64,000 bases of DNA from Escherichia coli (GCF_016026235.1 NZ_CP065613.1); one strand, 5' to 3'; counted from the first letter of the stretch, positions 17,003 to 19,991 are shown. Program-made: numbers and translations. Notes: generated by a model from the letters alone, not told the origin.

Positions 17003-17707
17003 ATGGACAGATTCCCACGTTCTGATTCAATCGTACAACCCCGGGCTGGCTTGCAAACTTATATGGCGCAAGTCTATGGCTGGATGACCGTTGGCTTGTT
17101 GCTGACCGCATTTGTTGCCTGGTATGCAGCTAATTCTGCGGCCGTGATGGAGCTGTTATTCACTAACCGTGTCTTTTTAATCGGTCTGATCATCGCGCAA
17201 TTAGCATTGGTTATTGTGTTATCAGCGATGATTCAAAAGCTGAGCGCAGGTGTAACGACGATGCTCTTTATGCTTTATTCGGCGCTGACGGGTCTTACGC
17301 TTTCCAGTATTTTCATTGTCTATACCGCTGCTTCTATCGCCAGTACTTTCGTCGTTACTGCCGGGATGTTCGGCGCAATGAGCCTGTACGGTTACACCAC
17401 GAAGCGCGATTTAAGTGGCTTTGGCAATATGCTGTTTATGGCGTTAATCGGCATTGTGTTGGCATCGCTGGTCAACTTCTGGCTGAAAAGCGAAGCGTTG
17501 ATGTGGGCAGTCACCTACATCGGCGTGATTGTCTTTGTGGGGCTGACCGCATACGACACCCAGAAACTGAAAAACATGGGTGAGCAGATTGATACCCGCG
17601 ACAGCTCTAACCTGCGTAAATACTCCATTCTCGGCGCATTAACGCTGTATCTCGATTTCATCAACCTGTTCCTGATGTTGCTGCGGATCTTCGGCAACCG
17701 CCGTTAA
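17003..17707 (+). CDS. ybhL: BAX-inhibitor-1 family inner membrane protein, 234 aa
   Basis: ORF 16922..17707 trimmed to MDRFPRSDSIVQPRAG with SD ggaga upstream; multiple TM segments. Confidence 0.9.
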   Translation: MDRFPRSDSIVQPRAGLQTYMAQVYGWMTVGLLLTAFVAWYAANSAAVMELLFTNRVFLIGLIIAQLALVIVLSAMIQKLSAGVTTMLFMLYSALTGLTLSSIFIVYTAASIASTFVVTAGMFGAMSLYGYTTKRDLSGFGNMLFMALIGIVLASLVNFWLKSEALMWAVTYIGVIVFVGLTAYDTQKLKNMGEQIDTRDSSNLRKYSILGALTLYLDFINLFLMLLRIFGNRR

Positions 17708-17725
17708 ATTCTCTTCTTCCTGCTG

Positions 17726-17752
17726 ATCCCGGCCTGGTGCCGGGATTTTTTC
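17726..17752 (+). terminator. Rho-independent terminator of ybhL (cccggc ctggt gccggg attttttc)
   Basis: GC stem plus T-run 20 nt after the ybhL stop. Confidence 0.7.
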
Positions 17753-18043
17753 GGATTATATAAAGGCTGTTTCGCTCATTTTCATGAGAACTCAGTCGCT
17801 GCAAATGCCACACTATCCGTATGCGTCAATTCAGGGATAGATAACTCATTTGAACCGTCAATTCGCTGTCACTTACTTGCCCAGAAAAAACCGGCCCCTC
17901 AAAGGGTGGCTGGTAGCTGGCGGGATAAAACACTATTGCGATTTTATTCGCTTGTTTCGGTTTCCTGCCATGAACGCTCTTGTGCTTGTCTGGCCCAGGC
18001 ATTCACGGTGCAGGTAATGGACGCATATTGAAGAAATAAAATT

Positions 18044-18388
18044 ATGAAAGTGATAAAGATAATTATTGCGATTACAGGTGTTATGATTATGGTGATGGCA
18101 CATGACCTCGGTCACGAGATATATACGTCATATTTCAGGCCGTCAAGTCACGGAGTTGGTTTGGGATTTATCCGCTTTTATATGCTTTTTGTTCTCCTCC
18201 CCGTGGTATTCCTGACGCCATTTATAGCAAATAAGTACACGCACACACTATCTTGTATTGCAATATTATATTTATTGTTTTCGTGGGGCGGTTTGCATCC
18301 ATTGCGAGTTATTTTAATGATTTTATCATTCATGCTATCGTATATGTCGGTGTTATTTTTAAAGAAAATTGATGCAAAAAGGAAATGA
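18044..18388 (+). CDS. Hypothetical small inner-membrane protein, 114 aa, 3-4 predicted TM helices, basic C-terminal tail; low-GC gene
   Basis: ORF track 18044..18388; hydrophobic stretches by eye; strongly AT-rich compared with flanking genes; weak SD. Confidence 0.4.
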   Translation: MKVIKIIIAITGVMIMVMAHDLGHEIYTSYFRPSSHGVGLGFIRFYMLFVLLPVVFLTPFIANKYTHTLSCIAILYLLFSWGGLHPLRVILMILSFMLSYMSVLFLKKIDAKRK

Positions 18389-18439
18389 AATTCCAGATAT
18401 ATTTAAAAATATTTATGATATTAAACAAGAGAGGTTTTT

Positions 18440-18817
18440 ATGTCATTAGTTTGCACAATAGAAAATAAATATGTTGATAAATTTATGGCTATTCTGCTTT
18501 TAGGGGTTTTACACTCGCTGGAAAGGGGAGCAGTAACCATAGATGAATCTGAATTGCTTGTTTTCTGTCCTTTTTTTGCCCGTACTCTACGGAGGAAAGG
18601 TTGTGATAAAGAATTACTAGATATAATTTATCATGGTTGTGAGCTTGAAGATATTGAATCGCTGATCCCTGAAAGGCTCGAGACTGTCATACAAGAACTA
18701 ATTCTCCAAACAACCGATTTGATCTATACAAAAAGAGATGATTATCCCTTAAGTGATGAAAGGGAAAGCATGGTTTCCTTTGAATTTAGCAATAATAAGG
18801 ATTTGCAGAGTGTTTAA
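18440..18817 (+). CDS. Hypothetical acidic hydrophilic protein, 125 aa (possibly the N-terminal part of a roughly 196-aa frameshifted gene)
   Basis: ORF track 18440..18817 with good SD (gagagg) 6 nt upstream of the ATG; low GC (about 25% in the first 60 nt, counted by hand). Confidence 0.4.
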   Translation: MSLVCTIENKYVDKFMAILLLGVLHSLERGAVTIDESELLVFCPFFARTLRRKGCDKELLDIIYHGCELEDIESLIPERLETVIQELILQTTDLIYTKRDDYPLSDERESMVSFEFSNNKDLQSV

Positions 18818-19031
18818 AGATAAAACTGTCGCAGCAGAAATTAGTGCATTAATGCTTGAGATTGGTGCGAAATTAGATAATTCCGTTTCACTTGTTCAGA
18901 AAAGTTGCGATGAATCTGAGCTTAATACTTATCGTTCCGCCGTCGGTGAAATTATGGGGCGCATGTTAATCGACATCATGAACCCCATCTATAAACAGCA
19001 CTCCGAACTCAAACCTGAACAACTTAGCTGA
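18753..19031 (+). CDS. Hypothetical protein, 92 aa, other frame, overlapping the previous ORF by 65 nt (a separate overlapping gene or the C-terminal part of a frameshifted gene)
   Basis: ORF track 18753..19031; its stop is 3 bp from the convergent ybhN stop. Confidence 0.35.
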   Translation: MMKGKAWFPLNLAIIRICRVFKDKTVAAEISALMLEIGAKLDNSVSLVQKSCDESELNTYRSAVGEIMGRMLIDIMNPIYKQHSELKPEQLS

Positions 19032-19034
19032 ACA

Positions 19035-19991
19035 TTACATCGCCGCTTCATTTTTCGCCCGTAGCTTCTTCGCCTGGCTTTCCAGCAACAGGTAACAGAT
19101 CAGCGCCAGCAGCAGTGGGATAAAGTAATACAGCACACGATAAGCGAGTAGGGCGGCGATAATTGTGCCTTTAGATGTATGCTCCCCTGCCAGTAGCGCG
19201 ATAAATACCGCTTCCAGCACACCAATTCCCGCCGGAATATGCACGATGACACCAGCAATACTACTAACCAGCAACACGCCCAGTACAAAGAAATAGTTCA
19301 CGCTTTGACCAAGTAACAGCCAGATAATCGCTCCCATTACCATCCAGTTAACGCTGGAAATCAGCATCTGAGCGAGGGCGAATTTCCATGAAGGCAGCAC
19401 CAGCTTTTGCCCTTTGATGGTCATATGGCGGTGCTTCGCGAAAGCGCAAAACCACAAATAAACCGCGATAATCATCAGTAAGCCAATGCCGAGAATGCGC
19501 AGCGTGGTTTGATCGACATACCAGTGGTCCGGCAACTCCACCACGCCTGCGGTAAATATAATCCCTGCCAGTAAAATATAGCCCAGCCAGTTGGTGGTAA
19601 TACTGAGCGAGAAAATCCGCGTAATAGTGCTGCCCGGTAACCCTAGTCGGGAGTACAAACGATAGCGCATACCAATGCCGCCGACCCAGGTACTGAGCGT
19701 CAGGTTGAAGGCGTAGCAGATAAACGACACCAGCATCACCTGGCGCTTCGCCAGTTTGTGACCGCAGTAAAAGCGGGCGAGCAGGTCATAGCAGCCGTAA
19801 ATCAGATAGCTGACGACCACCAGCCCGACCGCACTAAGCAGCGCAACGCGATTGTAGTCGCGGATGACCTTCCAGACCTCTTCCCAGTCCACTTTTTTGG
19901 CGTAGATCACCAGCAACACAATCACCGCGATAAAAAACAGCCAGGTGAGGATCTTCTTTGCTAAGCGCCAGCGCGGGTGTGATTTACTCAT
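19035..19991 (-). CDS. ybhN: Inner membrane protein YbhN (UPF0104/lysylphosphatidylglycerol-synthase-like TM domain), 318 aa
   Basis: ORF 19035..19991. Confidence 0.9.
   Translation of the reverse strand: MSKSHPRWRLAKKILTWLFFIAVIVLLVIYAKKVDWEEVWKVIRDYNRVALLSAVGLVVVSYLIYGCYDLLARFYCGHKLAKRQVMLVSFICYAFNLTLSTWVGGIGMRYRLYSRLGLPGSTITRIFSLSITTNWLGYILLAGIIFTAGVVELPDHWYVDQTTLRILGIGLLMIIAVYLWFCAFAKHRHMTIKGQKLVLPSWKFALAQMLISSVNWMVMGAIIWLLLGQSVNYFFVLGVLLVSSIAGVIVHIPAGIGVLEAVFIALLAGEHTSKGTIIAALLAYRVLYYFIPLLLALICYLLLESQAKKLRAKNEAAM

Follow-up and report, generated by a model that had tools for sequence, protein, structure and literature searches.

The window, as we call the whole stretch of DNA analysed here (64,000 nucleotides from Escherichia coli, GCF_016026235.1 NZ_CP065613.1), has the gene order moaE-ybhL-islet-ybhN-clsB, then ybhP, and the AT-rich islet between ybhL and the convergent ybhN holds two small genes on the + strand. 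The first, gene A (18440..18817, RefSeq WP_001602040), runs from an ATG to a TAA and encodes a complete DUF3969-family protein of 125 aa; its stop, at 18815-18817 inside GTGTTTAAAG, lies where the original prediction had put it. The second, gene B (18810..19031, +, RefSeq WP_001602041), most likely starts at a GTG, ends at a TGA only 3 nt from the stop of the convergent ybhN, and encodes a protein of 73 aa (predicted N-terminus Met-FKDKTVAAEISALMLEIGAK), which is predicted to form a helical hairpin. The two genes overlap by the 8 nt GTGTTTAA (18810..18817, +), in which the GTG of gene B occupies 18810-18812 and the TAA of gene A 18815-18817. Each gene is preceded by a Shine-Dalgarno-like sequence: GAGAGG at 18429..18434 (+), read directly from the sequence 5 nt before the ATG of gene A, and AAGGA at 18797..18801 (+), inside the 3' end of gene A and 8 nt before the GTG of gene B, the latter being kept in the TAG-A-ATG and E. 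coli 042 alleles discussed below. Both products are acidic (pI 4.5 for A and 5.0 for B), as had already been said of the locus.

The segment had also been described as AT-rich, and so it is, with 29-38% G+C against 50-57% in the flanks (29-43% over the ~1.3 kb stretch between ybhL and ybhN). From 18000 to 19040 the sequence is 100% identical to that of strains FDAARGOS_943 and GDSC2227PM. Any part of genes A and B is present in 40 of 5,426 complete E. coli genomes, and both genes in 30 of the 5,426; the A-B islet is a rare accessory islet of this species. RefSeq gives two CDS in all of the complete genomes holding both genes (30/30), and PGAP names 18440..18817 "DUF3969 family protein" and 18810..19031 "hypothetical protein", of 73 aa.

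The gap between ybhL and gene A is filled by an open reading frame at 18044-18388 (+) for a very hydrophobic product of 114 aa (pI 9.9, GRAVY 1.0), unannotated in the RefSeq relatives and intact in four related loci. Compared with EC42405 it has 10 substitutions, distributed 3/4/3 over the codon positions, which gives no sign of selection, and it matches no family in PADLOC, PHROGs, NCBIfam or Pfam. We considered whether it could be a remnant of ybhM and rejected this idea, as it has no similarity to ybhM. The latter gene, which in most strains sits between ybhL and ybhN or the islet, is absent from the window; ~84 nt at 17926-18009 are 70-73% identical to the 3' end of a ybhM-like gene, and the segment 17700-17890 resembles the spacer downstream of ybhL. 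At the ybhL stop (17696-17752, +) there is a sub-threshold Rfam match to the SorX sRNA (22.4 bits, gathering score 46.6, E=0.014), which is probably due to chance.

The products of genes A and B

Gene A matches Pfam PF13108 (DUF3969) with 67.6 bits (cut-off 25, E=1.1e-18), its residues 10-91 corresponding to profile positions 4-85 of 106. Its length fits that of a stand-alone, single-domain protein, since the 36 DUF3969 homologues have 73-133 aa and the full-length ones among them 106-125 aa. In the AF2 model (pLDDT 84.9) residues 2-117 make up the whole fold, and the tail that covers the overlap with gene B (118-125) is disordered. Measured against diverged alleles, dN/dS is 0.24-0.38, indicating purifying selection on gene A in its own frame. 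Two candidate matches were discarded: P0059, a protein of 133 aa combining DUF3969 with a weak Fic match, is not accepted as a true fusion, coming from an assembly with a run of N, and the single, weak PDB match of the DUF3969 profile, to 9n69_F ("TIGR02646 family protein"; 26 residues, E=0.0014), is taken as chance. Fold searches returned generic helical bundles only, PADLOC, PHROGs and NCBIfam contain no match for A or B, and there is no mention of DUF3969 in the literature that we searched.

Gene A has been disrupted three times independently, each time at nearly the same point (18742-18755, codons ~102-106, CCCTTAAGTGATGA): by an IS1 insertion in RM9088, with a 9-bp duplication GAGTGATGA, by an IS2 insertion in AHM8C212RI and, in E. 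coli 042, by a rearrangement at which a duplicated remnant of the A 3' end begins. The clustering may reflect a local hotspot or be coincidental.

Gene B is likewise under purifying selection in its own frame (dN/dS 0.20-0.40); in the comparison with a metagenome homologue, pN is 0.27 and pS 0.78, synonymous sites being saturated. Its AF2 model (pLDDT 93) is a two-helix hairpin, with helices at residues 5-32 and 35-63. The protein has no Pfam match and belongs to a widespread family of proteins of ~73 aa for which Pfam has no model; a sequence search of the PDB returned nothing for it. An exhaustive search of 1.84 billion representatives retrieved 514 clusters at E<=1e-3, and the best 150 of these 514 are mostly of 70-80 aa and aligned from residue 1-5. 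In some lineages the gene looks damaged: E. albertii has ATA at the start position, E. fergusonii has a version cut to 52 aa, and there is an early stop in locus L022. Gene B may thus be dispensable or decaying. In the E. albertii homologue (L015/L018 3001-3003) the ATA stands where E. coli has ATG or GTG, with an out-of-frame ATG just upstream, which would suggest either a non-canonical start or no translation.

The A-B junction and its alleles

The original prediction saw in this locus one protein split across two frames, either by a recent 1-bp indel (pseudogenisation) or by a sequencing error, or else an unusual pair of genes overlapping by 65 nt. It was correct in that taking one T out of the GTTT run gives an open reading frame of 196 aa, which reads ..NNKDLQSVKDKTVAAEISAL.. 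at the join. However, this is uninformative, since a fusion by deletion of one nucleotide can be obtained from any adjacent co-directional pair in that relative frame.

The junction exists in several allelic forms. The window reads GATTTG-CAG-A-GTG-TTTAAAG, and 88-3493 and eight other genomes read GATTTG-TAG-A-ATG-TTTAAAG, so that the two forms differ by 2 substitutions (TAG>CAG and ATG>GTG) in 80 aligned nt, with no gap. Codon 123 of gene A (18806..18808, +) is CAG (Gln) in the window and a TAG stop in the 88-3493 / O169:H41 allele group, according to the junction comparison, and this difference sets whether A ends 1 nt before B or continues for 3 codons and overlaps B. In the TAG-A-ATG allele A stops at the TAG and the ATG of B comes one base on, whereas in the window A continues with Q-S-V to the TAA inside B. 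An intermediate form, CAG-A-ATG, is found in E. coli 042 and in L022, and the same CAGAGTGTTTAA as in the window is found in L020, an allele with just 68% identity to the window in its A protein. CAG is therefore present on several diverged backgrounds (window, L020, 042 and L022); either state of the stop, TAG or CAG, could be ancestral, and TAG could be the derived one. Most other alleles start gene B with ATG, and the GTG is probably derived; GTG is a weaker start codon than ATG.

The spacer between A and B varies still more, from -8 nt in the window to +1 (L007), +8 (PT62), +12 (E. albertii) and +13 nt (E. fergusonii), and the relative frame of the two genes changes with it. Judged from the sequences compared, such shifting of spacer and frame is the behaviour of an intergenic junction and not of an intragenic one.

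The idea of a single gene of ~196 aa, which a 1-bp insertion in the GTTT run would have interrupted not long ago, draws on the uninterrupted reading frame that deletion of one T restores, and on the other lesions that the original prediction had reported in the window. The comparative data refute it. The nearest allele differs by substitutions and has no indel; frame relation and spacer vary between species; and according to the models the fold of A would be complete by about residue 117 and that of B would begin at residue 5. No fusion of A and B was found among the 36 DUF3969 homologues, among 25 close B homologues (45-92 aa) or in the best 150 of the 514 B-family clusters, and in these best 150 no B was found at the end of a protein of ~196 aa. 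The two genes also occur apart: A is present without B in Salmonella, Providencia, Xenorhabdus, Pseudomonas, Moraxella and Bacillus, and B without an adjoining A in Burkholderia (two species, syntenic), in Salmonella and on a metagenome contig. Two genes separate A and B in E. coli 042, and IS1 or IS2 lies between them in other strains. In the orthologous loci of three Escherichia species, A and B are separate genes with their own starts, which is the kind of pattern that the original prediction had named as speaking against one protein split by a frameshift. A 65-aa open reading frame following the DUF3969 gene of L008 was also considered as a B homologue and rejected, as it is not homologous.

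An apparent frameshift created by an assembly or sequencing error at a homopolymer is refuted as well. There is indeed a short T run (TTT) at the site; on the other side, six complete genomes, sequenced independently by different laboratories and from different sources, share the 81-nt junction without a single difference, the exact products of 125 and 73 aa are encoded on 133 and 350 contigs, respectively, and no reference allele has one T fewer. Since it is identical in these six genomes and present in L020 as well, the junction of the window is neither an error nor a recent event.

The length of the overlap depends on where gene B starts. The second frame is open, as was stated, from GTG 18753 or ATG 18756 to the TGA ending at 19031, and B would have 91-92 aa, with a true overlap of 62-65 nt, if one of these codons were its start; a few database entries of 91-92 aa use such a start (e.g. 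P0003, with 92 aa). RefSeq nevertheless places gene B at 18810..19031, which reduces the overlap from 65 to 8 nt, and several observations are in favour of this choice. No Shine-Dalgarno sequence is present ahead of 18753 or 18756. Within gene A, frame B is interrupted by 11 stops, of which that at 18750 is the last, and a stretch of 19 codons without a stop has a probability of ~0.22 at the local composition. A stop closes the extension in the PT62-type allele. Finally, the distant B homologues of Burkholderia, Salmonella and the metagenome (42-60% identity), aligned from residue 1, lack the extension and begin at the residue matching 18810. Given the probability of ~0.22, the lack of a ribosome-binding site at 18753/18756 and the RefSeq start at 18810, we interpret the 65-nt overlap as a chance open stretch, i.e. 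an artefact of taking the longest ORF. Codon-position counts in the 57 nt of 18753-18809 are too few to tell the frames apart, so that the frame was called from the conservation of the start site and from the closure of the ORF in other alleles. We are thus quite confident that gene B starts at GTG 18810 and consider an upstream start very improbable; the mechanical 5' extension of ORF B (18753..18809, +, 19 codons, inside gene A) is most likely untranslated in frame B.

One could also imagine that a programmed +1 ribosomal frameshift at GUU_UAA_A yields an A-B fusion beside A, as B is in the +1 frame of A and a U-rich codon precedes the stop of A, loosely as at the prfB site. In prfB, +1 shifting is stimulated by a Shine-Dalgarno-like element ~3 nt from the stop; here, however, AAGGA is 13 nt from it. 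Re-pairing of tRNA-Val from GUU to UUU should create a mismatch at the first codon position, the RNA structure of the junction is not unusual (z=0.15), and there is no Rfam match at the junction. The frame relation, moreover, is not conserved, spacers of +1, +8, +12 and +13 nt placing B in other frames or behind an in-frame stop. We regard this possibility as vanishingly small. That the locus consists of two genes, with no frameshift, is on the contrary practically certain.

The alternative of an overlapping gene pair, in the original prediction, therefore stands as far as the pair is concerned, but neither as to the 65 nt, the overlap being of 8 nt, nor as to its unusual character, -8 nt ranking third in frequency. 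For 2.66 million co-directional gene pairs from prokaryotes the commonest distance is -4 nt, with -1 and -8 nt next, and pairs at -8..+10 nt, a range that includes the A-B distance, form a class regarded as likely to be coupled by termination-reinitiation (PMC10666635). The A-B pair is an ordinary one, with an 8-nt stop/start overlap and already two CDS in RefSeq. No promoter- or terminator-like site is present between A and B, and a single transcript would carry both genes. Ribosomes would load on B via its own Shine-Dalgarno sequence, or by termination-reinitiation at the stop of A, 5 nt past the start of B; co-transcription, with translation of B by one or both of these routes, seems likely from the arrangement of the signals.

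These results have two practical consequences. The locus should not be counted among the gene lesions of the window, as it contains no frameshift, pseudogene or exotic long overlap. It also illustrates a general trap, namely that the longest mechanical ORF overstates overlaps and that an edit of one nucleotide will "repair" any short out-of-frame overlap.

DUF3969 genes beside Rhs and CdiA toxin-like domains

The position of DUF3969 genes in other genomes provides a clue to the function of gene A. In a Salmonella Rhs orphan array, an ORF of 172 aa overlaps a DUF3969 gene by 4 nt, and the last ~85 residues of this ORF (..SIKDAPQYPKGF..GKWSKVYKDG..VSIHYFESQSGRVFNVKVKPEWSN) are kept upstream of DUF3969 in Xenorhabdus and in the E. 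coli locus L028. The same ~85-aa domain forms the C-terminus of an "RHS repeat protein", P0066, just past the core-end motif PLNPVTNTDPLGL. It ends a Moraxella bovis plasmid CdiA after the VENN motif (..EAVENNGL..), with DUF3969 next and a 4-nt overlap, and it ends a P. aeruginosa DUF637 protein, with DUF3969 next after a 13-nt gap. A DUF3969 gene comes next to this toxin-like domain in every case that we examined (L031 3057-3575, L035 ~2500-2764, L036 ~2326-2589 and P0066). The domain itself has no Pfam model and, by sequence search, no relative in the PDB. The product of gene A shares 34-42% identity (E=1e-19 to 2e-27) with the DUF3969 proteins encoded next to this domain.

In contact-dependent inhibition and Rhs systems the immunity gene lies directly downstream of CdiA-CT or Rhs-CT (delimited by VENN or PxxxxDPxGL, respectively), and orphan immunity genes exist and are expressed (PMC3150448). 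The DUF3969 family occurs in this position, downstream of a CdiA or Rhs toxin domain, whereas the copy of the window does not: no such toxin is encoded in the window, and no remnant of a toxin C-terminus precedes gene A. Islet variants of E. coli 042 and EC42405, for their part, contain a SUKH-4 immunity protein. Taking together the position of DUF3969 after toxin domains, the 34-42% identity, the lack of a toxin in the window and the SUKH-4 protein of the islet variants, we read gene A as an orphan immunity gene of the CdiI/RhsI type, and think that this assignment is probably right. Its product would bind and neutralise the ~85-aa toxin C-terminal domain delivered by the CdiA or Rhs proteins of competitors. 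Two observations go against this reading: the Escherichia DUF3969 clade linked to ybhM/ybhN, which shares 34-47% identity with the toxin-linked members, was in no case seen with a toxin gene as neighbour, and some DUF3969 genes are found in unrelated contexts, one of them following glsA in Bacillus thuringiensis and another lying on an integrative element of Providencia.

The larger islet found in E. coli 042 (L005, 877-2800) and EC42405 (L003, 2941-4504) consists of DUF3969, a protein of 152-154 aa without a family and SUKH-4 (27 bits, cut-off 25.5). In E. coli 042, SUKH-4 is followed by a short copy of ybhN 3'-end sequence, by the remnant of the A 3' end and by B. The junctions of these variants look like the product of cassette exchange by recombination.

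The case of gene B is more tentative. In the metagenome, B belongs to an array of small genes, one of them for a T6SS Tdi1-like immunity protein, and B might be a second orphan of the immunity type, a proposal to which we give somewhat less than even weight. The architectures of other family members are further hints in this direction. One homologue, P0250 (451 aa), has the B domain at the very end of an Rhs fragment, where it follows PVNYSDPSGL and a Cys-rich region; in P0114, P0136, P0139, P0150 and P0236, B-family domains are tandem duplicates or are fused to DUF4288, TPR, DUF3658 or DUF6968. In Burkholderia multivorans and B. cenocepacia (L038 6001-6222, L040 2501-2722) B has 73 aa and 42-47% identity, and lies, in the same syntenic position in both species, between a class II aldolase-like gene and a large NAD-glutamate dehydrogenase gene; the plasmid-collection records do not annotate it. 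Such a setting resembles core genome and not an immunity array, which goes against the proposal.

Instead of independent cassettes, A and B could be functional partners, forming a two-subunit complex or a toxin-antitoxin-like pair. They remain neighbours in E. coli, E. albertii and E. fergusonii, and in E. coli subunits of heteromeric complexes are 4.5-fold enriched among pairs at -8..+10 nt (PMC10666635). Yet many taxa have only one of the two genes, E. coli 042 has two further genes between them and other strains IS1 or IS2, neither A nor B matches a defence or toxin-antitoxin model (PADLOC, Pfam), and both products are acidic. We consider partnership unlikely, and think it very probable that A and B are two independent, co-transcribed small genes in a horizontally acquired AT-rich islet.

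One may go further and suppose that DUF3969 and the ~85-aa domain (..SIKDAPxYPxGF..GKWxKVYKDG..VSIHYFxxQSGxVFxVKV..WSN) are an undescribed toxin/immunity pair, common to the Rhs and CdiA delivery systems of five genera or more, that A-B is a two-gene orphan immunity islet, and that the B family is a second widespread immunity family. This extended scenario is rather doubtful as a whole; in its boldest version, A and B would be translationally coupled because they act together. What the present data offer more directly is a role for DUF3969 that can be tested, namely that of conferring immunity to an uncharacterised toxin domain present in Rhs as well as CdiA proteins. Orphan immunity-type genes appear to accumulate in E. 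coli strains at the ybhL/ybhM-ybhN junction, which would make it a small hotspot.

Comparison with known systems

In its arrangement, the A-B pair resembles the coupled pairs with overlaps of -4, -1 and -8 nt studied by Huber et al. in 2019 and 2023 (PMC6728339, PMC10666635): the genes are co-directional, the stop of A comes 5 nt after the start of B, the Shine-Dalgarno sequence lies inside the upstream gene and no promoter or terminator is seen between the genes. It differs from these pairs in that other alleles have spacers of +1 to +13 nt, so that the overlap is not conserved. Reinitiation is reported to be less efficient at a -8 overlap than at -4 or -1 (PMC10666635).

The origin of the overlap can be compared with the model of Fonseca et al. 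2013, in which overlaps arise mostly by loss of the stop of the upstream gene and its extension to the next stop (PMC3887535). The TAG and CAG alleles are indeed one base apart, and A of the CAG allele extends to the next in-frame stop, inside B. Unlike in that model, the change may here have gone in either direction, and TAG could be derived.

As a genomic feature, the islet recalls T6SS and polymorphic-toxin immunity islets such as the putative one of Salmonella Typhi (PMC7400221), being like them a short cluster of small immunity-type genes with no effector near and present in some strains only. The islet of the window differs in having just two genes, of which B is without an assigned family.

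The closest parallel to the proposed function is that of the orphan CdiI/RhsI genes described by Poole et al. in 2011 (PMC3150448). The window copy differs from these in that its islet lies between ybhL/ybhM and ybhN, away from any cdi or rhs locus, and in that the role of DUF3969 is predicted from context. It is like them in other respects: A is small, acidic and cytoplasmic, and its relatives follow a toxin domain, often with a 4-nt overlap, while the copy of the window has its own ribosome-binding site and lies, without a toxin gene, in a variable AT-rich islet.
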